Origin: Verrucomicrobiota bacterium
GTDB taxonomy: Bacteria > Verrucomicrobiota > Verrucomicrobiia > Limisphaerales > AAA164-E04
NCBI GenBank assembly: GCA_047947115.1
Contig: CP170459.1
Span: forward strand, 864,001 to 928,000
DNA length: 64,000 bases
Reading direction: 5' to 3'
Part shown: positions 1,187 to 40,494 of the stretch, in pieces
Numbering within the stretch: the first letter of the stretch is position 1
Layout: each line of letters starts with the position of its first letter
Translations under genes and position numbers: made by a program
The notes under the pieces: model-generated
Databases searched by the model: none
The model's input: the letters and a program-made list of their open reading frames with translations, nothing else
What the model was told of the DNA's origin: nothing

Positions 1187-3538
1187 ATGTACATGCAAAA
1201 AACAACCCTTTTCGGCAAATGGACCGCGATGTTCGCCACCGCCGCCATGACTTATGGTGTCGGCTTGGCGGAGGAATCGTTGTCACCTGCCGCATCCGTT
1301 TTTCAAAAGGAAATGGTTCCGTTTCTAAAGCAATACTGCTACGAATGCCACGGGACCAAAAAGCAGAAGGCAGACGTCGACTTCGAAAACCTTCCGACCA
1401 CTACGGAAATATTCAAAGATACCGAATTATGGGAACTGACCAGGGACCTGTTGTTGGATAACGAAATGCCTCCGGAGAAAAGTCCTCAGCCGGGTATGGA
1501 GGATAAACAACACATCCTGGATCTGATCGACCTTGAGCTGGAACGATTCGATTGCGACTCCCTGTCCAATCCAGGCAGAGTCACCATCCGCCGCCTCAAC
1601 CGCGCTGAATACGACAATACCATCCGCGATCTTCTGGGTGTCAATTTCCAGCCTTCCAAAGATTTTCCATTGGACGAAGTGGGATACGGTTTCGACAACA
1701 TCGGCGATGTGCTTTCCCTGTCCCCCATCCTGATGGAAAAATACCTGAACGCAGCCGAATCCGTGGTAACCAACGCAATTTTGTCTCAAATTCCCGCCTG
1801 GCCGCCCGTCAGCCGACATCAGGCGGAGCAGTTCACCACCACGGAAGACGAAATTATCCGTGCGGAGGGTCCGGTGATGGGCTTTTACCGGGAAGGTTCC
1901 GCAAGCAAGACCATCGAGACCGAGCAGGCTGGTGAATTCAAGTTGATCATCCGAGCCTACGGTCAGCAGGCTGGCCCCGATCACGCCAAACTCGAAATCG
2001 CCATCAACGACAAGGACAAACAAGTCATCGATGTGGATGCTTTCCAGGACAAACCACGGACCTATACTATCAAAACCAACCTGGCGAAGGGTGCCAACCG
2101 TTTGTCGCTGGCCTATCTCAACAACTACAATGTCCAGGACCACCCCGTCGCCGAATTGAACGGGGACCGCAACTTGTTCGTGGACTACGTTGAGATTGAA
2201 GGTCCGCTCAATGTCGAAAGACCTGCGCTGCCAGAATCACATACACGCATCATTCCCGGTCAACCTGAACGCGGCAAAGAAATAGCCTATGCCGGGCAGG
2301 TCCTGAAACCATTCGCCAAACGCGCCTGGCGCCGGCCGGTCAGTGATCGGGAAACAGAAAGACTCACCTCGCTGGTCGCCTATGCGCTGGAACAGAAAGC
2401 CACCTTCGAAGAATCCATTCAAGTAGCGCTTCAAGCCATCCTGACCTCCCCGAGTTTCCTCTTCCGCTGGGAACTGGATCCCAGTGAAAAGGAAGGAGAA
2501 GGCACCCGCCAGTTGAACGAATACGAATTGGCCTCCCGCTTGTCCTACTTCCTTTGGAGCAGCATGCCGGATGAAGAATTGTTCGCCCTCGCTGATGAAG
2601 GAAGACTGAGCGATCCGGAGGTGATCAAACATCAGGTCGAGCGCATGATCCAGGATCCGAAATCGGACGCATTCGTCACGAATTTTGCCGGACAGTGGCT
2701 GCAGTTCCGAAGCCTGGACACCGTCACTCCCGACCCCACCCGATTCCCAACCTACAACGATGAACTGCGTCAGGCCATGCAGCGCGAAAGCGAACTCTTC
2801 TTTTCGGAAATCATGCGCACCAACCGCAGCCTCACCGATTTTTTGGACGCGGACTTCACTTACCTGAACGAAACACTCGCGCGTCACTATGGTATGGAAG
2901 GTGTGCAAGGAAAAGAATTCCAGAGAGTCTCGCTGGACGCCGACAGTCAACGAGGAGGCGTCCTGACCCAGGCCAGCGTTCTGACTCTGACCTCCAACCC
3001 CACCCGCACCTCCCCCGTGTTGCGTGGCAAATGGATCCTGGAACAGATTATGGGCACCCCACCCCCACCTCCCCCGCCTGATGCGCCCCTCCTGGAAGAA
3101 ACCGAGGAAGCGATGCTGTCCGGATCTCTGCGCGAGCGCATGGAGAAACACCGCATCAAACCGGATTGCGCAACTTGCCATGAAAAAATGGACCCGATCG
3201 GATTTGCTTTTGAAAACTTCAATGCAGTGGGCGAATGGCGGGATCTGGACGAAGGTTTCCCCATTGATCCATCGGGCAAGCTGCCCGATGGAACAGAGTT
3301 CAACGGGCCCAAAGACCTGATCAAGGAACTCATGAACCGCGAAACCTTCGTGCGTTCGGTGATCGAGAAAATGTTGACGTTTGCACTTGGGCGCGGTTTA
3401 GAATACTATGATCAGTGCACCGTTGACGAAATTTACGAGGATTTGAGCGCAGATCATCTGAAGTTCCAAACTCTGATTCAATCAATTGTGCTCAGCAAAC
3501 CATTTCAATTGAGAAATCTGGAAGGCGACGCTTTATGA
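1187..3538 (+). CDS. DUF1592/DUF1588/DUF1587/DUF1585/DUF1595 (PSD) family planctomycete cytochrome c protein
   Basis: N-terminal CYECH, RRLNRAEYDNTIRDLLG, YELASRLSYFLWSSMPD, TSPVLRGKWIL, C-terminal CATCH. Start uncertain (ORF from 1109). Confidence 0.92.
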   Translation: MYMQKTTLFGKWTAMFATAAMTYGVGLAEESLSPAASVFQKEMVPFLKQYCYECHGTKKQKADVDFENLPTTTEIFKDTELWELTRDLLLDNEMPPEKSPQPGMEDKQHILDLIDLELERFDCDSLSNPGRVTIRRLNRAEYDNTIRDLLGVNFQPSKDFPLDEVGYGFDNIGDVLSLSPILMEKYLNAAESVVTNAILSQIPAWPPVSRHQAEQFTTTEDEIIRAEGPVMGFYREGSASKTIETEQAGEFKLIIRAYGQQAGPDHAKLEIAINDKDKQVIDVDAFQDKPRTYTIKTNLAKGANRLSLAYLNNYNVQDHPVAELNGDRNLFVDYVEIEGPLNVERPALPESHTRIIPGQPERGKEIAYAGQVLKPFAKRAWRRPVSDRETERLTSLVAYALEQKATFEESIQVALQAILTSPSFLFRWELDPSEKEGEGTRQLNEYELASRLSYFLWSSMPDEELFALADEGRLSDPEVIKHQVERMIQDPKSDAFVTNFAGQWLQFRSLDTVTPDPTRFPTYNDELRQAMQRESELFFSEIMRTNRSLTDFLDADFTYLNETLARHYGMEGVQGKEFQRVSLDADSQRGGVLTQASVLTLTSNPTRTSPVLRGKWILEQIMGTPPPPPPPDAPLLEETEEAMLSGSLRERMEKHRIKPDCATCHEKMDPIGFAFENFNAVGEWRDLDEGFPIDPSGKLPDGTEFNGPKDLIKELMNRETFVRSVIEKMLTFALGRGLEYYDQCTVDEIYEDLSADHLKFQTLIQSIVLSKPFQLRNLEGDAL

Positions 3539-4893
3539 AAAACACACAACACTGGACACGCAGAAACTTCCTCAGAGGCCTGGGCACTGCATTGGCTCTG
3601 CCAACCCTGAGTTCCGTCTCTCCATTACGCGGGTTGGCAGCTGGGGGATCCTCCGAGCATCCACTGCGTATGGCATTCATGTTTGTGCCCAATGGCATAC
3701 ACATGCCAGACTGGACCCCGACCACGACAGGCCGACATTTTGAGTTACCAAAGATCCTCAGTTCCCTCGAACCCATCAAGCAGGATCTGGTGGTGCTCAG
3801 TGGTTTAACCCATGATAAAGGGCGTGCCAATGGGGACGGAGCGGGAGATCATGCCCGTTCAGCCGGGGTTTTTCTCACCGGAGTGCAACCATTGAAAAGC
3901 GAGGGATCCGAAATCCGGGCAGGTGTTTCAGCCGACCAGGTTGTCGCCAAAGCCATCGGGCATCACACTCGGTTCGCCTCCCTGGAAATCGGAGCTGAAA
4001 CAGGACGTCAATCCGGCAAATGCGATTCCGGTTACAGTTGTGCTTACTCCAACAACATTTCATGGCGCGATGAAGCCACTCCGATGACCAAGGAAGTCAA
4101 TCCTCGACTCGTCTTTGAACGTTTGTTTGGCAACCAGATACAAACCGAGGAAACCGAAAGCCTGGCGCGCCGCAAACGCCTTCGGAAAAGCATCCTCGAT
4201 TTTGTGCTCGATGACGCACATCGCCTGGAAAAACGTGCCAGCTACCGTGATAAACAAAAGCTTGGCGAATACCTGACCGCAGTGCGCGAAATCGAACAAC
4301 GTATCGAACGCGCAGAACGCGATGCGAACGAACGTCCGGATTACCTGACAGAGTTTGATGCGCCCGAGGGCATCCCCGCCTCTTATGAGGAACACATCAA
4401 ACTGCTCGGAGACCTCATGGTGCTTGCTTTCCAGGCCGATGTCACACGCATCTCAACCTTTATGCTCGCCAACGAAGGCAGTAACCGCAGCTACCGCCCC
4501 ATCGGAGTCAATGACGGACATCACAGCTTGTCTCATCATCAGAGTGATCCTGTCAAACTGGCAAAAATCAGCGAAATCAATGAATTCCACGTCCGACAGG
4601 CCGCCTACATCCTTCAGAAAATGAAATCGATTCCCGAAGGAGACGGCACCCTGCTGGATCACAGTATGATCGTTTACGGTGCTGGCATCAGCGACGGGAA
4701 CCGTCACAACAATGAAAACCTGCCTGTCTTTCTGGCCGGTGGGGCCAACGGCAAAATCCAGACCGGCCGCCATGTGAGTTACGAATTCGAGACCCCCATG
4801 GCCAACCTGCTCCGCTCCATGATCCATCACATGGGCGTGGAAGCGAATCATTTCGGTGACAGCACCGGGTTGCTGAGAGGTCTGGAAGGCTGA
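3535..4893 (+). CDS. DUF1552 (HXXSHH) family protein, Tat-exported
   Basis: TRRNFLRGLG twin-arginine motif, HHSLSHH motif, ATGA coupling to the DUF1592 gene (known gene pair). Confidence 0.93.
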   Translation: MKNTQHWTRRNFLRGLGTALALPTLSSVSPLRGLAAGGSSEHPLRMAFMFVPNGIHMPDWTPTTTGRHFELPKILSSLEPIKQDLVVLSGLTHDKGRANGDGAGDHARSAGVFLTGVQPLKSEGSEIRAGVSADQVVAKAIGHHTRFASLEIGAETGRQSGKCDSGYSCAYSNNISWRDEATPMTKEVNPRLVFERLFGNQIQTEETESLARRKRLRKSILDFVLDDAHRLEKRASYRDKQKLGEYLTAVREIEQRIERAERDANERPDYLTEFDAPEGIPASYEEHIKLLGDLMVLAFQADVTRISTFMLANEGSNRSYRPIGVNDGHHSLSHHQSDPVKLAKISEINEFHVRQAAYILQKMKSIPEGDGTLLDHSMIVYGAGISDGNRHNNENLPVFLAGGANGKIQTGRHVSYEFETPMANLLRSMIHHMGVEANHFGDSTGLLRGLEG

Positions 4894-30732: not shown

Positions 30733-30895
30733 ACCCATGTCTTTGGACTGCGGCAAGTCATTACCACTCTGGATACCTTGCGACAACTTTGTGGAATTCG
30801 GATCTTTCTGAATGTTCATCTACCCTTTTGGGCAAATTGCGGGGTGTCAGTTTGTCAGTTGAGATAATCTTACGCCAGGGGTATACGGACCGTAT

Positions 30896-30998
30896 CCAGA
30901 GCTCCGATGACTCGGAGCACTCCAGATGGCGCTGGCCTTGTTGAAAGCTTTTAAAGATCGAAGCAATTCTGGAGTGCTGGGGAAGTATCGCCGCTCTG
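30896..30998. repeat. Inverted pair of GGAG-type REP-like hairpins
   Basis: Reverse complement of 30896-30926 is TCTGGAGTGCTCCGAGTCATCGGAGCTCTGG; 30968-30998 is TCTGGAGTGCTGGGGAAGTATCGCCGCTCTG. Confidence 0.65.
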
Positions 30999-31120: not shown

Positions 31121-32038
31121 TCAATCATTTACGGCTTGGAATTTGGCATACCAACCGGCATAAGGAACCAGAAGCCCTTGCTCGCGCATCCGAATCTCGC
31201 TAACCGGATTTCTACCCCTCGGAGATTCCTCTCCATAATCCATGAGCTCCAACGGTAAATCTTCCATCCCTTTCATATTGTAAAACAACCGGTAAATCAG
31301 ACCATTAGCATTGGCCTTTCCTACGGCTGTAGCGAACTCGGTATGAAACCATTTCCAATCCCTTAAGCGCTCACGCAGGTTGTTTAATGCTTCATCTACC
31401 TGCGCATTCCACGTCACATCTGGAAACAGCACCTTTTGAATTCCCACATTTTCACTCACACGAGGTTCCCTGGATTTTGTTTCGCGAGCCACATGATGAA
31501 ATCGCCGAAAATCCCGAAAACAAAGCGCCACCAAAACCGGATCATGCCCGCGGTCATGCTCACTGAGAATGGTATGGAACTGTTTGAAGGGCAACGTCAG
31601 CCTGATCTCATCCTCAAAGAACCGTTCCAGGAACGTATGATTGAAGTGCGCAATCGATGGGAGGTCTCCCAATTCCGAAACACCCTTCTTCCTTTCCAAA
31701 TCCAACGCCAACTCCGATCCTGGTACCGGGCGCCACGGAAAATTCACCCTCCATTCCGCCAACTTCTCCATTTCCTCCTGAAGAGCTTTCATGCGGCGTT
31801 TATGCGGTGTCATGACGTATTCGATGCGTGATATATTGTAGTCAACGGCTTGAGCGTGACGATGTGAGATATGCATTAAAACGTTATGCACCCAATGACG
31901 AATCTCCCAATCACCGGGCTGCGGACCTCGATGTGACCAATAAACCCTTGAATCACCGAAAGTCAAAACCAGGAGACAAATCACCATTCCAAAAATCATC
32001 GCCCCAAAAAAAAGCTTCAACCGTTTTCGTTTAGTCAT
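31121..32038 (-). CDS. Unknown-family membrane-anchored paralog B4 (lacks the C-terminal module)
   Basis: N-terminal TM; LAEWRVNFPWRP, NHTFLERFFED, RGHDP, LLVPYAGW. Confidence 0.75.
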   Translation of the reverse strand: MTKRKRLKLFFGAMIFGMVICLLVLTFGDSRVYWSHRGPQPGDWEIRHWVHNVLMHISHRHAQAVDYNISRIEYVMTPHKRRMKALQEEMEKLAEWRVNFPWRPVPGSELALDLERKKGVSELGDLPSIAHFNHTFLERFFEDEIRLTLPFKQFHTILSEHDRGHDPVLVALCFRDFRRFHHVARETKSREPRVSENVGIQKVLFPDVTWNAQVDEALNNLRERLRDWKWFHTEFATAVGKANANGLIYRLFYNMKGMEDLPLELMDYGEESPRGRNPVSEIRMREQGLLVPYAGWYAKFQAVND

Positions 32039-32156
32039 AAGCAGGGAGGTCAAAATTTATTATCGCCAGGGTGTGTCACATCAATCGATCGACCGGCCAG
32101 GGATTTTTGATTGGCGTATATTGGACACCGTTGTGAGGTGATAATAATTCATTGAA

Positions 32157-34493
32157 TTATTGAAAATCTTCATAATTGACGCTTTGTTCTGAATATCCTT
32201 GCTGAGCTTGGTTTCCTAATTCCGTTAGAAAACGAGCGAAGCGGTCGATTTCATCCCGTGAAGCATCACGTATTCGCCCCTCTTGCCGCATAACTTTCAC
32301 TTCACTGGGAGAAGGAATGGTCACTCTCCCCTTTTCATCAACAGCGAGCGGTACCGCCTCATTAACACAATTGATCATGGTGACTTGAAGGCCTTCAAAA
32401 TTTCCTACGGGATTACCTCGACCATCCTCCAATTGCCCCTTCCTGACTCGCCTGGGAGGGGACCAATTGGGATCATCATTAATGGCCGGGTCAGTCGCGT
32501 CGTATTTGATTCGAATTTTGCGATCTTCCTCAAACTCTTTCAAAGCGCATTCCTGATACCATCCGATGTAGGGCGAGAGAAGCTTGTCCTCCCCATTCAT
32601 CAATGCTTCAAATTCAGGAGAATCACTGTGTAAACTGCCAACGTACGACATAACCTCAGTTGGCAATTCATCCAGCCATTTGATCTCTTTTAGCAGACGT
32701 ATGATCAAGCCTTCCATTTCGATCTTGCCGGTCTCAGTGGAAAACTCGGGTTTAAGCCACGCATCTTCGCATAGCATCCTTCGCAACCTCCGAAGCTGAG
32801 TCTCAGCTTCCTCTCCACAAGTAACGAATCCAAACATGCTACTCGAAACACGCTTTCCGTCGCGAATAACGTACTCGTCGGGTTCATGTTCAAACGCCGC
32901 GTGGTAATATCGGCGAAAAGCGTGAAAGCATTTCCCCACCATCACGGGATTGTGTCCTCGATCATGCTCCTTGAGAATGTTGCAGAAAGTTTCGAATGAT
33001 GAGGTGAAGCGGTTTTCGTCCTCAAAGAATTTCTTAAGGTAAGCGTGATTTGGCCCGATACCCCATTCAGTCTGGCTTCTTCTTTTCCACTGACGACGCA
33101 TTTCCACTTTCTTCTCCGGTGTCAAATGTGAACCACTAACACCATGCAGGTAAAGATAAGGCTGAGATGGATCGAAAGTCAGATTTAGATCATGGGTAGG
33201 TTTCCAAGGGAAATTAGTCTTCCAATGAGCAAGCCTTTCGGCTTCGGCTCTTCGGGCCTTTGGGTCCATGGCAATCATCCTTTGGATGACAATCGATGGC
33301 TCATCCGGACCTGCCCTATGAATGCCTCCGTTTTTTCGCAGGCGTTTGATCTCTTCCGGTGTGGGAATCGTTATGAATCCATCCGCATCTACCTCCACAG
33401 GGATCAGCTCATTTTCACCATTTATTATGCTGACCTTCAGACTGTCACATTGTTCCACGGGTTCTCCCCAATGATCCACCAATCGGCCGAGTTCGACACG
33501 CGCAGTTGGATTTGATTCAGGATCTCTCTGAATAAAGGTCCAAACGGATGCATCATGAATGCGAAACTGTCCATCCAGCTCCGCCTGCAACATTGCACTT
33601 TCTTGATACCAACCGACGTAAGGCGTCAGTAATTGTTCCTCACCATTGACCAAAGCCTGATATTGAGGAGACTCTTTGTTTATTCCCACCAAGTAATTCA
33701 TGATGTTCTTCGGAAGATCATCCATTTCCGGAATTTCCGTCACCAAACGACTGATGAGACTTTCTACCTCAGCCTTACCCGCTGCGGTAGCAAATCGCGG
33801 ACGAAGCCAATCCCAATGACTCAGGTGCCATCTTAGTGAGCCAAGTGTCCCCTCAACCCGATCCGCCCACGTCATATAACCGAACCGCCCCTTCGGAGCC
33901 CGCGATTCATCTGAAGGAAAATATTCGTCCGGTTCGTGTTTAATGACAGCTTCAAAATAGAATCGGAAGGCCTGGAAGGACTCTCCCACCATGGCAGGAT
34001 TATGCCCCCGACCATGTTCCTTGAGTATCTGGTAGAACTTTTGAAACTGGGGCGTGAACCGAATATCATCCTTGAAAAATCCACGAAGAAACCAATGGCT
34101 GCGCCCAATGGAACTCTCAGTCTGGCCTCTCCTTTCCCAAAGACGATGAATCCTTCTATTATCTTCTTGAGTCACCTTCGATATATCATAGGTAAGTAAA
34201 TAATTGTAAGGCTGGGAGGCATCGAAAATCAGCGTGGGGTCATGAGTCGGTTTCCAGGGGAAATTTTCTTTCCAGTTGGCAAGCCTTTTCGCTTCAAGCT
34301 GCCTAGCTTCCTCGCTCAATGGATTCGATGAGATAGAAGTTTTGGGTACTTGTCCCAAATGGAGGGTTTCATTGGGAAATGCTTTATGGTAATTTGAATG
34401 AAATGTCCCCACCCACAACCACACAACCGAGACTGTGATTAACAGGACTGCCATGATCGCGATCAAGTACTGCGGTTTTGTTAGCTGTTTCAT
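32157..34493 (-). CDS. Unknown-family membrane-anchored paralog B3 with two tandem domain copies
   Basis: N-terminal TM; RLANWKENFPWKPTHD and RLAHWKTNFPWKPTHD; RGHNP twice; PYVGW and PYIGW. Confidence 0.85.
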   Translation of the reverse strand: MKQLTKPQYLIAIMAVLLITVSVVWLWVGTFHSNYHKAFPNETLHLGQVPKTSISSNPLSEEARQLEAKRLANWKENFPWKPTHDPTLIFDASQPYNYLLTYDISKVTQEDNRRIHRLWERRGQTESSIGRSHWFLRGFFKDDIRFTPQFQKFYQILKEHGRGHNPAMVGESFQAFRFYFEAVIKHEPDEYFPSDESRAPKGRFGYMTWADRVEGTLGSLRWHLSHWDWLRPRFATAAGKAEVESLISRLVTEIPEMDDLPKNIMNYLVGINKESPQYQALVNGEEQLLTPYVGWYQESAMLQAELDGQFRIHDASVWTFIQRDPESNPTARVELGRLVDHWGEPVEQCDSLKVSIINGENELIPVEVDADGFITIPTPEEIKRLRKNGGIHRAGPDEPSIVIQRMIAMDPKARRAEAERLAHWKTNFPWKPTHDLNLTFDPSQPYLYLHGVSGSHLTPEKKVEMRRQWKRRSQTEWGIGPNHAYLKKFFEDENRFTSSFETFCNILKEHDRGHNPVMVGKCFHAFRRYYHAAFEHEPDEYVIRDGKRVSSSMFGFVTCGEEAETQLRRLRRMLCEDAWLKPEFSTETGKIEMEGLIIRLLKEIKWLDELPTEVMSYVGSLHSDSPEFEALMNGEDKLLSPYIGWYQECALKEFEEDRKIRIKYDATDPAINDDPNWSPPRRVRKGQLEDGRGNPVGNFEGLQVTMINCVNEAVPLAVDEKGRVTIPSPSEVKVMRQEGRIRDASRDEIDRFARFLTELGNQAQQGYSEQSVNYEDFQ

Positions 34494-34517
34494 TGAAATG
34501 CTCTAGGATATTCCTGC

Positions 34518-35765
34518 CTATTTAGGCGGTTGACTCATTTCCATGATTTTCTGGATGATGGGTGAAGCTTCATCCAAAGTGGCAGGCCTGACATCACCGT
34601 TCTGGCGCATAAGCTCGACCTCCTGGGGCGTGGGTAATGAAATACTCCCATCGTCCTCGACAACGACCGACACCCGCTCACCACGTTCATTAATGAGGGC
34701 TATCTCTCCGCTTTCTGACCATTTGACGGGATCTCCGTCTTTGTCGACAAGTTGACCGTTTATGATATCGACTGGTGGAAACAACTCCGGCATTGCTGCC
34801 TTGAGGAATGGATCCCCCTGTTCATAGCTTGTTTGAAATTGCCTTCTTTGTTCGCCTTCCATCATGGCATGTTCTTCTGTCCATCCAACATAAGGCACCA
34901 AGAGTTCCTCTTCTCCGGAAATTACACCTGCTGCTTCAGGATTAGTAGAATTCATACCACTTACTATCGCGTACTCCATGACGTCAACGGGCAGTTTATC
35001 CAAACCTTCTACTTCACCAAGCAGACGTTCAATCAATGCAAAAGCATCAGCTCTTCCCTCATCGGAAAGGAATCCTGGACGATGCCATCTTGACGTAATG
35101 AGTTTAACATGAAGTGAACCCAGAAGCTTATCTGCATATTGGCCCCATGTTTTGACTTTGAGACGTCGTATTGGAATGTTATCGCTTTCATTGATTTCAT
35201 CGTTTTCACCGTGTTCGTATGCCGCGTGGTAATAGCTTCGTAGTGAGTGAAAAACGGCTGCTGCTGCTACGGGATCATGCCCGCGATCATTTTCTTCAAG
35301 TATTCGGTAAAACTTCTCAAATTGAGGAGAAAATCGTGATTCATCATCAAAAAAGTTTTTCAATACATAATGATTGGCTCCGGTAAACATATCTGTCGCA
35401 CTCATAGGTCCCGGCCTTTTGCTTTCTGCCAAGTAACGACCTGGATCAGATTTAAGATATGGATCATGAGTTGGTTTCCACGGAAAATTGACTTTCCAAT
35501 TCCACAACCTTTCACTCTCTGTATCATGGTTTTGGCTTGTAGAAGCGCCTGGGTTCAATGCAATGCCCGGAAAAGAAGGATTGAATTTCCTATGCTGGTA
35601 ACGGTTTGTTTGTACTGAATCATCTTGATTCAGATTTCCCCTGTTTGTATTAGATGTGATTGACTGCCTTTGTACGAAATTTTGAAATGAGAGCAAAAGG
35701 ACAAGTATTAGCCCTCCCAAACCGCACATGAAAACAATCATTTTCAGCATTTTGTTGTTTTCCAT
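34518..35765 (-). CDS. Unknown-family membrane-anchored paralog B2
   Basis: N-terminal TM; RLWNWKVNFPWKPTHD, RGHDP, LLVPYVGW, C-terminal NGQLVD module. Confidence 0.85.
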   Translation of the reverse strand: MENNKMLKMIVFMCGLGGLILVLLLSFQNFVQRQSITSNTNRGNLNQDDSVQTNRYQHRKFNPSFPGIALNPGASTSQNHDTESERLWNWKVNFPWKPTHDPYLKSDPGRYLAESKRPGPMSATDMFTGANHYVLKNFFDDESRFSPQFEKFYRILEENDRGHDPVAAAAVFHSLRSYYHAAYEHGENDEINESDNIPIRRLKVKTWGQYADKLLGSLHVKLITSRWHRPGFLSDEGRADAFALIERLLGEVEGLDKLPVDVMEYAIVSGMNSTNPEAAGVISGEEELLVPYVGWTEEHAMMEGEQRRQFQTSYEQGDPFLKAAMPELFPPVDIINGQLVDKDGDPVKWSESGEIALINERGERVSVVVEDDGSISLPTPQEVELMRQNGDVRPATLDEASPIIQKIMEMSQPPK

Positions 35766-35785
35766 AAATCACCCTTCCATAGATT

Positions 35786-36289
35786 TCAAAGGTTTTTGTC
35801 ATCCAATACATATGTATACTTCTTGTTAACCCAATTGGTTGTTGTGATCAGAAGTGGATTAATGACATTGTTTTGATTATCAAGGTTGGAAACTGGCGTT
35901 TCCTCTGCTTTAACCGAAGATTTGACCAAGTTTGTATGCCACCAATATTGTTTTCCGCCTGAGACTCCGACATCTGATATTAAACACGATTCAGGGCAAA
36001 CAGGTTCAGATTTATAGTCATATTTGTAAGCGGGAAAACCTATAGCTTTCTTATGACTTTCCCATCCTTCCTTCACCCAAGTTCCGTTGTCGGGATGATT
36101 GAGGTCATTGATATCATCGGCCTGGTTGGACCAGCATGCAACTTGCCCCCAGGTAATAAAAGTTCCTCCAACTTCAAGATGACGAAATACCTTTTGTCCA
36201 GCAGCCACCCATAACCAAACAACCGCAGCTGCGACAAAACTCACCGCTAAGTTCGCGGTCAAATACAGTGGTTCGGGTAATCGTTTCAT
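35786..36289 (-). CDS. Small exported protein A2 (possibly eroded)
   Basis: Hydrophobic N-terminus and GGTFITWGQV motif shared with 37597..38643; tightly spaced between B1 and B2. Confidence 0.7.
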   Translation of the reverse strand: MKRLPEPLYLTANLAVSFVAAAVVWLWVAAGQKVFRHLEVGGTFITWGQVACWSNQADDINDLNHPDNGTWVKEGWESHKKAIGFPAYKYDYKSEPVCPESCLISDVGVSGGKQYWWHTNLVKSSVKAEETPVSNLDNQNNVINPLLITTTNWVNKKYTYVLDDKNL

Positions 36290-36313
36290 TGATAACCTTT
36301 AAAAGGTATCTGA

Positions 36314-37582
36314 CTACTGGGCCGGTTGTTCCATTTCCATGATACTTTGAATAATAGGAGCAGCCTCTTCCATCGTGGCAGGCCGAATATCACCTCTCTG
36401 ACGCATGAGCTCAACCTCCTCGGGCGTGGGCAACGAAACACTCCCGTCGTCTTCAACGATGACAGGTATTCGCTCTCCACGTTCGTTAATAAGAGCCATC
36501 TGCCTGCTTTCTGACCATTTGACAGGATTATCGTCCTTGTCCACTAACTGACCATTCTTTATATCGACGGGTGGAAATAACTCCGGGGCGGCTTCTTTAA
36601 GAGATGGGTCACCTTGTTTAAAATCCATTTCGAATTGCCGGTTTTGAATTCCTTCATAAACCTGGCTCTGTTCGAACCAACCAACATATGGCACTAACAT
36701 TTCCTCTTCACCATTCCGTATGGATTGATAGTCTGGAGACTGATCGCTCATTCCGGTGCCGTATGCCATCACATCAAGAGGGAGATTCTCCAGCCCTTGG
36801 ATTTCCGTGACCAACCGTTTGATCAACGCATTGGCTTCGGCCTTTCCTGCGTCTGTTCCAAACTTAGGATTCAACCATTCCCAATGTCTTAACCAACCGC
36901 GCAGGCTTTCATACAGCTCATTTGACTTGTCTCCCCATGTAACGTAGCCGAAGAGTCCTTTTCGAATCCGTTTTCCATTTCTTTGAATGTATTCACTTGG
37001 TTCGTGCTCATATGCCGCGTGGTAGTATTGGCGCAAAGCCCAGAAACAGCTCCCTGTCATTACAGGATTGTGCCCGCGTTCATGGTCTTTGAGTATCCTG
37101 CAAAACTTTTCAAACTGGGGGGTGAATCTATTCTTGTCTTGAAAAAATTTCTTGAGAAAGGAGTGGTTCACTCCAGCGGCCATTTCTGAATTGCTTTGAT
37201 GTTTCCAGAAAGCGCTCAGGTCGTCACGTTGCTGATCTGTAAAATCTGTTGCATCCACTCCATTTAAAAACTGGTAGGGTCGCAACGGATCATAGATCAC
37301 TTTAGCATCATGCGTCGGCTGCCACGGAAAATTTTCTTTCCATGATTGCAATCTCTGCTCTTCCAAAAGTTTTTCCTTTTCGCTGAGCAAAGAAGGTTCC
37401 ATTAACTTTTTATAGCTGCTTTTACTTTGGGGCTGGATTTGATTGTCAGACAATTCAATTGTAGATCCTGCTTCCCTTCCGGAGGCAAACTCAAAACCAA
37501 CTTTATTCAAGTAGAAAACACCAATCAAACAAATGACCAATGTCGTTGAAACAACCACATATTGATTAACTTTTCGTTTCAT
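36314..37582 (-). CDS. Unknown-family membrane-anchored paralog B1
   Basis: N-terminal TM; RLQSWKENFPWQPTHD, RGHNP, MLVPYVGW, C-terminal NGQLVD module. Confidence 0.85.
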   Translation of the reverse strand: MKRKVNQYVVVSTTLVICLIGVFYLNKVGFEFASGREAGSTIELSDNQIQPQSKSSYKKLMEPSLLSEKEKLLEEQRLQSWKENFPWQPTHDAKVIYDPLRPYQFLNGVDATDFTDQQRDDLSAFWKHQSNSEMAAGVNHSFLKKFFQDKNRFTPQFEKFCRILKDHERGHNPVMTGSCFWALRQYYHAAYEHEPSEYIQRNGKRIRKGLFGYVTWGDKSNELYESLRGWLRHWEWLNPKFGTDAGKAEANALIKRLVTEIQGLENLPLDVMAYGTGMSDQSPDYQSIRNGEEEMLVPYVGWFEQSQVYEGIQNRQFEMDFKQGDPSLKEAAPELFPPVDIKNGQLVDKDDNPVKWSESRQMALINERGERIPVIVEDDGSVSLPTPEEVELMRQRGDIRPATMEEAAPIIQSIMEMEQPAQ

Positions 37583-37596
37583 ACCGGAACAAGAGG

Positions 37597-38643
37597 TCAG
37601 TCATTTGAAAGTTCCGTAGCATACGGAACGTAATTTAGGTTTTGTTGGATCTGTCCTCCTTTTTCTTCGATATCCCCAAATCTGTTTCCAAACCGATCAA
37701 CTTCTTGCACTTGTATCAGTGCTGTTGAATACGTCACATTTCGGTTCCAAACGATATCCATCCCCCCGTTAACGCGCTCCCATGCAATTCGATGATGCGA
37801 TGGGCACAGTTTTTTCGGAACAGTCTTATCCTCGTACCCAGGAAACCAAATTTCTACCGGCTTTTGAGTAAGCATATCACCACTTGCCCAACGACTGCCA
37901 TACTGGTCGGTTATCCATTCTAATTTTTGGAGTTTGAAATGAACTTTTGCAGTGTATCCCATTCCGAGTGCCTTTGCTTGGTTTACCAATTCACCATCCA
38001 ACGCAACTCCAAACCATTCAGGATTCCAAACGTCAGATTCAATGTCGACATCAGGGTATTCAAACTTTGTTGATTCACCATAAGTGAACCAATACCCACC
38101 CTGTTCCCATTCATCTTCCAAAGGCCAAAAAAAAGTTTTCTTTTGAGCTGCTCCAACTAAACCCGTCACCCATTCGAACCTCGACTTATCCCAGTATTCC
38201 GGCATGTACGCTCGTCCCTTGAGGTCTGGATTTACTTTATGTTCCCCTTCTTCTTCATCCCATTCGATGAATATCCAATCAATGTATGTCACCCCATAAT
38301 TGGCTCGATCTCTTACTGAAAAATTCGCAGTTTCCACCGATTCCCCATATGCCACACCTTCATATATGCTCGAATTCCTCATCCTTTCATAGGAAATCAA
38401 ATTTGGACGTGCTCGCAATTTTGAATCCGTGCTATCTGGTTTAAAAATTTCGCGGTATAGTTGTCCGTACGTAATCATAGTACCAGCACCACTAATAATT
38501 CTGTATGCCCACCCAACAGCACTACCCTCACCCACCAACCATGGTCCTGCTACAATCGGAGCTGCAGAATAGATGCTAACAGTGGCCAGCAGTGAGACCA
38601 CCACCATTGTAATAACCTTTTTTGATTGGATGATGTGTTTCAT
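37597..38643 (-). CDS. Secreted hypothetical protein A1
   Basis: Start at ATG 38643 (MKHIIQSKKVITMVVVSLLATVSIYS signal peptide); GAGTMITYGQL motif; Trp/Tyr-rich body. Confidence 0.8.
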   Translation of the reverse strand: MKHIIQSKKVITMVVVSLLATVSIYSAAPIVAGPWLVGEGSAVGWAYRIISGAGTMITYGQLYREIFKPDSTDSKLRARPNLISYERMRNSSIYEGVAYGESVETANFSVRDRANYGVTYIDWIFIEWDEEEGEHKVNPDLKGRAYMPEYWDKSRFEWVTGLVGAAQKKTFFWPLEDEWEQGGYWFTYGESTKFEYPDVDIESDVWNPEWFGVALDGELVNQAKALGMGYTAKVHFKLQKLEWITDQYGSRWASGDMLTQKPVEIWFPGYEDKTVPKKLCPSHHRIAWERVNGGMDIVWNRNVTYSTALIQVQEVDRFGNRFGDIEEKGGQIQQNLNYVPYATELSND

Positions 38644-39046
38644 TTTGTTCCTTTGTTTTTCGTTTTTAAATTTGATCAGATCACAGCTCCGCTGGCGTAG
38701 TTCTGCACAGCAGAGTACGTTGATTGAAATTGATTCATTGCTCCGTTTTTTCCGTATGTTCCAGTTGCTGGAACCTGGTGGCTTGATCACCTTGTGTCGG
38801 GCTATTCAGGCAGGACCCGAGATACGGTAAAGCAATAACCAAGCAGTAATGCTACTGTGGAATGGTGTCAATGGGAAAAGTGACTTTTTGCTACAAATTT
38901 ACATAACCGCTAACACACTTGCTACAGGCAAGTTCCACGATATATTAAAATCTTTTGTACTTTCTAATCACAATGTCGGTTTTTCAGACTTATGTCGCCT
39001 TTTTGAACCGATTGTTAGATAATAGGGAAACGGTTTCACACTTTGC

Positions 39047-39139: not shown

Positions 39140-40381
39140 TCACTTATCGGTTGGGATGGAACGGATGATTTCTTCCAGGGGGGTTTCGCCGCGGATGACG
39201 CGCTCGATGCCGGCTTGCCAGAGGGTTTTCATGCCTCGTTCGATGGCTATGTCCTGGAGTTTGCGGGTGGGGAGTTTGTCCATGATGGCTTCGCGCATGG
39301 TTTCGTCGACTTCGAGCATTTCAGTGACAGAGGCTTGTCCACTGAATCCGGTTCCCGCGCAATGTTCGCATCCTCCTCCGTTACGTAAACTGGCTTCTTC
39401 CAGGAGCGTGTCGGGTATCAGTTTTTGATATGAAACTTCGGGTTGGTAGGGTTGGGCACAGTAGGGACAGGTGGTTCGGATGAGGCGGAGTCCAAGAACG
39501 CCAATCACGCTGGATGCCAGAAGAAAGGGTTCGATCTTCATGTTGATCATGCGCGCAAAGACCCCGGCAGTGCTGCCGCTGTGAATGGTGCTGATGACCA
39601 GGTGCCCGGTGAGTCCGGCCTGCACCGCGATGTTGGCCGTTTCCGCATCGCGGATCTCACCGACCATGATGACCTGTGGATCCTGTCGCATCAGGGATCG
39701 CAGAGCGACCGGATAGGTGAATTCCTTGGCGTGGTGGATCTGGGCCTGACTTATCATGGGCAGGTTGTATTCCACCGGATCTTCCACCGTGCTGATGCTG
39801 ATGGCCGGTCCGTGTTTTTCAACCAGGTGCGTCAATGCGGCGTAAATGGCGGTGGTCTTACCAGATCCGGTCGGGCCGGTGAGGAGGATCATGCCGCTGG
39901 GTTTGGAGAGCAGTTGTTTCATGCTATCCAAAGTGGATGCTTCGAATCCGAGGTCGTCCAGATTGAAGCTGCGTCGGTTGGGATCAAAGATGCGGATGAC
40001 GATTTTCTCCCCACGCAAAACGCCCCCTTGATGATTCCCCCGAACTACAGGAAAGAAGGACATGCGAAGTTCGACGCCCCCCATCTCCTGCCCTGTCTGT
40101 GCATGCCCTTCCTGAGGGCGGTCCATTTCGTAACTGACCAGATTGGCCATGACTTTGAGCCGGCCTCCGACCTTCTCCATGAGTTCGACCGGCAGATGCA
40201 ACAACTCCTGCAACACCCCTTTCAACCTTATCCGCACGACCAGACTGGCATCCCAGGGTTCGATGTGGATGTCACTGGCACCGGATTCGATGGCATCGCT
40301 GATCATCAGGTCCACCAAGCGCGTGATTTCGAGCGACTCCACGGAGTCCGCTGACTGAAGATATTCGGAGGCCTTGTTCAT
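39140..40381 (-). CDS. GspE/PulE/PilB-family secretion ATPase without the long N-terminal domain
   Basis: ASDIHIEP, GPTGSGKTT, TVEDPVEY, RQDPQVIMVGEIRD, TGHLVISTIH, CPYC..CEHC. Confidence 0.92.
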   Translation of the reverse strand: MNKASEYLQSADSVESLEITRLVDLMISDAIESGASDIHIEPWDASLVVRIRLKGVLQELLHLPVELMEKVGGRLKVMANLVSYEMDRPQEGHAQTGQEMGGVELRMSFFPVVRGNHQGGVLRGEKIVIRIFDPNRRSFNLDDLGFEASTLDSMKQLLSKPSGMILLTGPTGSGKTTAIYAALTHLVEKHGPAISISTVEDPVEYNLPMISQAQIHHAKEFTYPVALRSLMRQDPQVIMVGEIRDAETANIAVQAGLTGHLVISTIHSGSTAGVFARMINMKIEPFLLASSVIGVLGLRLIRTTCPYCAQPYQPEVSYQKLIPDTLLEEASLRNGGGCEHCAGTGFSGQASVTEMLEVDETMREAIMDKLPTRKLQDIAIERGMKTLWQAGIERVIRGETPLEEIIRSIPTDK

Positions 40382-40494
40382 GTTGTTTATCAATCGTTGT
40401 TTTGCTATAAATGCGAGCACAAAATGTGCCGGTTATTGCCATGCTTTGTCGTAATTACCTATTTCGTAATCCCACTGGATCAAATCTTTGTCAC

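Follow-up and report, generated by a model that had tools for sequence, protein, structure and literature searches.

What does a compact array of exported proteins do when one domain, unlike any characterised family, recurs in it five times? The array in question occupies positions 31121-38643 of a 64,000-nucleotide stretch of verrucomicrobial DNA (the window; C1:864001-928000 of a single-contig 6.08-Mb genome), within which positions are counted here; the bacterium is marine. The locus is a two-gene module, an exported A gene followed by its partner B, with orphan B genes retained behind it. The module is real and new, it comprises two protein families, and the array likely marks a new toxin-immunity family. 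We lean towards the reading, drawn from sequence, that A would be a Sec-exported antibacterial toxin and B its membrane-anchored immunity protein.

An A-B module followed by orphan B genes

The six genes all lie on the minus strand, separated from A1 to B4 by gaps of 14, 24, 20, 24 and 118 nucleotides, which agrees with their initial annotation as co-oriented and closely spaced. The AT-rich character remarked on then is also evident, with 45.4% GC in the array against 51.1% in the genome and an equally low value in 17 of 810 windows of 7.5 kb. The first gene, A1 (37597-38643; 348 amino acids (aa) from its ATG), is an intact A-family gene and the putative toxin, with a signal peptide, a Gly/Ala-rich amphipathic-type segment and then an elongated all-beta body. 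Its cognate partner B1 (36314-37582; 422 aa), the putative immunity protein, has a single N-terminal hydrophobic anchor, a linker, a helical core and a C-terminal subdomain. Next come A2 (35786-36289; 167 aa), the remnant of a displaced A allele, and B2 (34518-35765; 415 aa), which is intact, is the cognate partner of the A2 allele and is now an orphan. The last two genes are also orphans: B3 (32157-34493; 778 aa) has one anchor and two B domains in the same frame, and B4 (31121-32038; 305 aa from its ATG) is a short form with a counterpart in a congeneric genome.

The four anchored B proteins do carry five domain copies, as first described, with pairwise identities of 30-53% (BLASTP E 1e-35 to 1e-124), and all six conserved motif blocks are present in every copy. 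The domain length of about 350 residues proposed for all copies holds in general but not for B4, which lacks a C-terminal part of about 110 residues, so that the shared core is about 230 residues; similar short forms are common among B relatives. One strong hydrophobic stretch is present at the N-terminus of each of the six proteins, and a lipobox in none of them. Promoter and terminator scans did no better than shuffles (13 vs 12.8 and 10 vs 8.9, respectively).

Within one family of Limisphaerales, B homologues typically have an A gene immediately before them. Among 70 distinct B open reading frames (ORFs), each of at least 240 aa, the directly upstream gene is A at 49, another B at 4 and neither at 17. 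The trees of A and B are congruent across 43 pairs (Spearman 0.71, reached by 0 of 2000 shuffles), a result that linkage alone would also give. Median identity is 16% for A and 27% for B, making A the more divergent family. In one genome (G011, L233:4365-6725, P0111) the two are naturally fused in frame, in a 768-787-aa frame that matches the A profile at E 5e-12 and the B profile at E 2e-52; the fusion is the sole A match of that genome, which has eight B matches. Read from its sequence, the fusion supports joint action of A and B.

The main rival explanation draws on the same observations. B may be dedicated to A, either as a membrane-anchored factor for its folding or maturation or as its surface anchor, with A a variable adhesin or surface protein; the natural fusion, the congruent trees and the position of an N-anchored helical partner directly behind an exported protein all favour it. 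Lipases and their lipase-specific foldases have this organisation, with an N-anchored helical periplasmic partner encoded directly behind the exported protein, and the A-B order resembles theirs. In contrast to lipases, which are alpha/beta hydrolases, the A model is nearly all beta and has no Pfam match, and we know of no orphan foldase arrays. We regard a helper or anchor role for B as unlikely.

Allele exchange and the order of gene loss

The two A genes had been taken for variable partners of different kinds. That description no longer stands: A1 and A2 are, as judged by alignment, alleles of one family, and A2 is a remnant with an internal deletion. Across its last 120 residues A2 is 92% identical to a full-length A allele of L089/L035, and it is 53% identical to P0052. 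Its missing 188 codons (564 bp) are bounded by the two copies of a 10-bp repeat near 36100-36112, and it begins with a B3-like stub where its own signal peptide would be (36205-36504 is 72% identical to 34409-34708). In other strains (L089/L035/L090) the first position belongs to the full-length A2 allele, with B2 and B3 behind it. In L089/L035 the DNA corresponding to A1's signal-peptide region joins the mature start of A2 directly, then come B2 (95-96%) and B3 (90-92%); in L089/L090 the B that immediately follows full-length A2 shares 95-96% identity with B2.

Upstream DNA and the signal-peptide coding region together form a shared 5' anchor (38557-38676, minus strand) that is common to three different A alleles, with DNA identities of 81-87% to L089/L035 and 91% to L128; the similarity ends at 38557-38558. 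A joint of 38557 to 36211 is present in contigs from three of four DNA runs. The L089/L035 arrangement and this joint indicate that a cassette (36212-38556, minus strand) of mature A1, B1 and a B3-like 5' stub, missing in strains with the A2 allele first, was inserted behind the shared signal-peptide anchor, and that the displaced allele fell into decay, with B2 left intact. The same slot in the congeneric genome G001 holds a third A allele (37% identical to A1), its own B and the B4 counterpart; B4 and its counterpart in L128 are 62% identical. Furthermore, L088 encodes a chimeric B with a B3-type anchor and a B1 core. Across strains, then, A alleles are exchanged behind the shared signal-peptide region with the displaced B genes remaining intact, and the view of the B genes behind the first pair as orphans is upheld.

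Codon comparisons place the displaced B genes under purifying selection. The ratio of nonsynonymous to synonymous substitution rates (dN/dS) of the orphans B2, B3 and B4 is 0.15-0.36, each at p<0.01: 0.15-0.36 for B2, which partly reflects time spent beside its A, 0.22-0.24 for each domain of B3 and 0.26-0.29 for B4. In none of the strains compared does an A gene directly precede B3 or B4. Intact A genes give 0.11-0.37 and two housekeeping controls 0.04 and 0.06. Were B a folding factor or anchor, it should decay once its substrate is lost; B3 and B4 nevertheless persist at 0.22-0.29 without an upstream A.

Loss was followed in 92 A matches from eight genomes, which after removal of 8 second pieces and 7 identical copies represent 77 distinct modules; six automatic calls were amended by hand after frame reading. 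Both genes are intact in 39 modules, 18 have a broken A with an intact B and two an intact A with a broken B, the rest being both broken (11), broken A without B (4) or cut by the locus edge (3). A breaks before B. The 18 broken-A modules form 15 sequence clusters, and 18 against 2 corresponds to a binomial p=2e-4, a value that is overstated because 56 of the 77 modules come from three related genomes sharing orthologues. In the first exception (G016) the break in B lies in a G run within the anchor and an identical (100%) intact B is found elsewhere in the genome; in the second (G017) B is truncated and an intact paralogue is present, 82% identical over the surviving 71 aa. An overlapping set built from B contains an intact A with a broken B in 0 of 48 cases (automatic calls). 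Long homopolymer runs occur in 2 of the 18 broken-A modules and 2 of the 39 intact ones; being rare in both sets, they make slipped tracts or read errors an unlikely cause of the 18 broken A genes. Under a helper role for B either gene should go first about equally often, which is not the 18 against 2 seen, and a helper has no need of B chimeras or tandem B arrays (L088, L004). Of the two functions initially suggested, effector and immunity protein agrees with both the strain comparisons and the sequence in which genes are lost, while the chaperone cassette stays as a rival.

Elsewhere in the genome that holds the window are four further loci (L001-L004), and in this genome four A genes are broken, each with its intact B kept. 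L001 has A, B and a second, frameshifted B. L002 has three modules, each with B intact and A disrupted, by an early stop in one, by several stops in another and by a transposase insertion in the third, and L003 holds an intact A-B pair. L004:2956-9678 (C1:5508955-5515677) encodes five short anchored B-like ORFs of 232-286 aa, two of which match the B profile (E 3e-13 and 4e-14), behind a 256-aa signal-bearing gene with no detectable relation to A. From L004, the B superfamily may serve other partners.

Such sites raise a second alternative, that B has an A-independent envelope function of its own and A is an accessory gene decaying under relaxed selection. Besides the L004 gene, it is favoured by the 17 of 70 B sites with no detectable A and by G014, a genome with 16-18 B matches and no A match. 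Against this, several of the G014 B genes do follow a signal-bearing ORF, in one case with a weak A match, these ORFs often being cut by insertion sequences; intact A is itself under purifying selection (0.11-0.37), and the A and B trees agree. We consider an A-independent B quite improbable. An RHS-like look of the ORF before one G014 B gene was not sustained in the wider region.

Predicted folds and the proposed mode of action

No match above the Pfam cut-off was found for the six window proteins or for any of 50 A sequences, and none in NCBIfam or PHROGs; the A and B profiles found nothing below E 0.1 among PDB sequences, and the ESM Atlas gave no usable match. Two candidates were set aside: an Imm5 Pfam match on B2 (E 0.06), which is sub-threshold and located on the linker, and a 37-residue PADLOC match on A1 (E 0.001), taken as chance. 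The A and B families are uncatalogued in the libraries searched; the initial annotation had likewise recognised no family for the domain, and no confident match to a characterised one emerged.

Structure prediction gave confident models for both proteins and no clear structural match. The model of B1 residues 60-422, built from 143 sequences, is helical (predicted local distance difference test (pLDDT) 93, predicted template-modelling score (pTM) 0.86). Foldseek found no match to it at E<=0.001, and the best Z is 6.2 (1u84, root-mean-square deviation (rmsd) 2.7, 74 aligned), with residues 210-363 barely covered. Two conserved residues, H81 and R93, are each present in 131 of the 143 sequences; as possible functional residues they would suit a folding or maturation factor. 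Mature A1, modelled from 50 sequences, is elongated and nearly all beta (pLDDT 89, pTM 0.74). Its best Z-scores in realignments are 3.1 and 2.9, and immunoglobulin-like and jelly-roll-like beta parts score Z 2-3, which would also be in keeping with a surface protein. Comparison with the CDC/MACPF fold gave Z 2.1 for 8g33 (rmsd 3.8, 105 aligned) and Z 2.9 for 5imw (rmsd 4.3, 69 aligned), and the best viral structural match has a template-modelling score (TM) of 0.09. Foldseek ranks two aerolysin-type proteins first (5zu4: E 2e-4, TM 0.11, rmsd 37 A). These misses are no proof of novelty for either fold. With 43 A-B pairs the alignment is too shallow for contact prediction (effective sequences per residue, Neff/L, 0.07).

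Immediately behind the signal peptide, A carries a segment with the best hydrophobicity-plus-moment window in 37 of 43 sequences scanned (7 of the 50 were excluded as too short), and small-xxx-Gly motifs are enriched in this post-signal segment (4.4 vs 2.5 per 100 aa). Similar segments in bacteriocins and actinoporins insert into membranes. In the proposed mode of action, A would be exported by Sec and its signal peptide cleaved, and B would stay tethered by a single helix at its N-terminus, its helical domain lying outside the cytoplasm. A would then reach related bacterial cells, the genome having several secretin systems, and insert the Gly/Ala-rich segment exposed by cleavage into their membrane, while the beta body would bind the target and oligomerise. 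By binding its cognate A, B would prevent this insertion, and the old B genes would shield a cell carrying a new allele from sisters still making the old A. The membrane-insertion step specifically is tentative and, in our estimate, somewhat doubtful. A broader proposal is possible at best: that A founds a new class of secreted pore-forming bacteriocins, with a new elongated beta fold and an N-terminal membrane-inserting segment, that B is a new immunity fold, and that the two make up a lineage-specific arsenal for marine Limisphaerales, exchanged in its entirety behind a common signal peptide and reaching dozens of modules per genome in some species.

Several points weigh against a toxin-immunity function. 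Neither a toxin fold nor a toxin domain was found for A, and the aerolysin-type reading, at a TM of 0.11, was not confirmed on realignment, where it did not reach Z 2. AlphaFold gives the first 40 residues of A1 as low-confidence coil and strand (pLDDT 51-67) with no helix, and for part of the 43 A sequences the scored hydrophobic window reaches back into the last residues of the signal peptide. B, at 240-480 aa, is larger than typical immunity proteins, and the G011 fusion is no less suited to a helper or anchor than to an immunity protein. Across A and B dN/dS ranges from 0.04 to 0.49 and never exceeds 1, with no sign of positive selection. Finally, besides the shared ancestry that inflates its p-value, the same asymmetry of loss would be expected were A harmful when unassisted, or were B able to work in its absence.

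The missing toxin fold, together with the exchange of A alleles, the keeping of old B alleles and the expansion to at least 30 B matches in some genomes, would also suit an allele-specific recognition pair (kin discrimination, adhesion, or a phage or predator decoy) in which A itself is no killer. Such a pair leaves unexplained why an intact A almost never lacks an intact B and does not account for the hydrophobic Gly/Ala segment, and no linked effector genes recur beside the module; we hold it to be very unlikely.

The toxin-immunity reading gains from a published parallel in Vibrio. As described in the sections of Kirchberger et al. (2017, PMC5361080) on array formation, effector-immunity arrays of the Vibrio cholerae type VI secretion system (T6SS) form by sequential displacement, and retained immunity genes are proposed to protect against sisters with older alleles. 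The window resembles these arrays, so described, in the insertion behind a homologous upstream anchor, the effector remnant pushed back and the old partner retained. It differs in that A begins with a signal peptide and lacks VgrG, PAAR and adaptor domains, and in that all A proteins belong to one family and all B proteins to another, whereas the Vibrio arrays mix unrelated types. A Pfam match to VgrG, PAAR or adaptor domains was found in 0 of 50 A sequences, the genome itself not having been searched for T6SS genes.

Polymorphic toxins, especially the signal-bearing MafB/MafI systems, share with the array a secreted-protein gene directly before its partner, downstream orphan modules and differences between strains, as far as these are covered in the relevant parts of Jamet and Nassif (2015, PMC4436062). 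Unlike the polymorphic toxins outlined there, A has no conserved trafficking domain joined to C-terminal toxin domains of unrelated kinds; the exchange involves the mature protein in full, and B is large and membrane-anchored with no SUKH or Imm domain. The A alleles are homologous along their length, with only the signal-peptide region shared as a common block, and a scan for longer A forms scored 0 of 7994 candidates, itself weak evidence. The Bacteroidota CDCL/BcdI pairs, in the portions of PMC11169675 that treat them, likewise combine an exported beta-rich antibacterial protein with an envelope-bound protector of about 30 kDa in the same operon on mobile DNA. CDCLs are, however, two-component and protease-activated, and BcdI is an upstream-encoded lipoprotein with an SpII signal, against a lipobox in none of the six window proteins; A aligns to CDCL only at Z 2.1. 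With modular-toxin, T6SS and lipoprotein features missing, the locus is not filed under polymorphic toxins, Vibrio arrays or CDCL/BcdI. By analogy, the best reading is that the A-B module evolves like Vibrio effector-immunity arrays and polymorphic toxin loci.

Apart from supplements, the literature searched yielded no paper linking Verrucomicrobia or Limisphaerales to toxin and immunity proteins, nor, among the papers listed, any on the A or B family. A toxin-immunity function, if true, would add two unclassified folds to the toxin-immunity repertoire, give marine Verrucomicrobiota a testable weapon system and extend Vibrio-style effector displacement to whole Sec-exported proteins, recombination being anchored by a signal peptide; bacteriocin researchers would take an interest in a narrow-spectrum membrane toxin whose fold is new. 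Natural cognate and non-cognate pairs (A1/B1, the L089 allele/B2 and the orphans B3 and B4) make specificity directly testable. Should B instead be a chaperone, the locus would still define a new exported-protein/helper pair with a natural fusion.

Distribution, environmental occurrence and neighbours

B relatives number 115 among 1.84 billion cluster representatives. In a set of 61 related genomes B is found in 19, namely the window's own, 17 of 21 others of the family and 1 of 39 from the order's other families; A occurs in 18, the B-carrying set minus G014. Some genomes reach 29-33 B matches. Among 301 genomes of the phylum, strong matches are confined to the window's own genome and G130, and seven weak B matches (E 1e-4 to 1e-5) cover the anchor and linker only; four of the seven were inspected and rejected. 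By title, 53 loci of the genome collection belong to Limisphaerales (47), Pedosphaera (2), Verrucomicrobiota (2), Opitutales (1) and Lentisphaeria (1). Three of the 53 carry the isolate name bin4_1_edit, and bin4_1_edit_10 is given in the consulted part of PMC9600693 as the contig name of a sponge symbiont of the family AAA164-E04.

G130, from another class, has three different A-B modules on one contig with ParB and IS21 genes, which suggests horizontal spread, mis-binning being possible. This contig (G130:C2; L234, L235, L237, L238) is 76 kb long with an 11-kb duplicated stretch, and bears ORFs that we take to resemble two CRISPR-Cas sets and a terminase. A long N-terminal extension marks the A or A-like proteins (490-590 aa) encoded at L187, L159 and L132 (G017, G016 and G013) and at L121, L122 and L125 (G014); those of L187, L121, L122 and L125 have no Pfam match above cut-off. 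At L047:3467-4723 a collagen-repeat exported protein stands in A's place directly upstream of B, and a second N-anchored family (336 and 322 aa; L030:345-1355 and 2578-3546) is encoded on both sides of a B gene.

The window's array is present in estuary, marsh and seawater runs, with at least half of its words in 15 of 20 holders. In all four metatranscriptomes, contigs, which cannot prove transcription, differ little from the array where they partly cover A1, B1, A2 or B2, and some individual contigs run across the A1-B1, B1-A2 and B2-B3 borders. The adjoining FG-GAP gene is almost uncovered in the same data; the RNA contigs give no coverage of 32010-33211 (B3), which is uninformative alone.

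Directly upstream of the array lies a gene for a GspE-type ATPase (39140-40420). A specific link between the two was rejected, the genome having eight strong GspE/PilB-type ATPase ORFs and ten secretin matches, in addition to 90 ORFs with a prepilin-type motif; the GspE cluster is absent among the neighbour families that recur in at least three of 72 loci. Downstream of the array, at 30744-30924, is an imperfect inverted repeat with 14 further partial matches in the genome, and many contigs end or branch at it.

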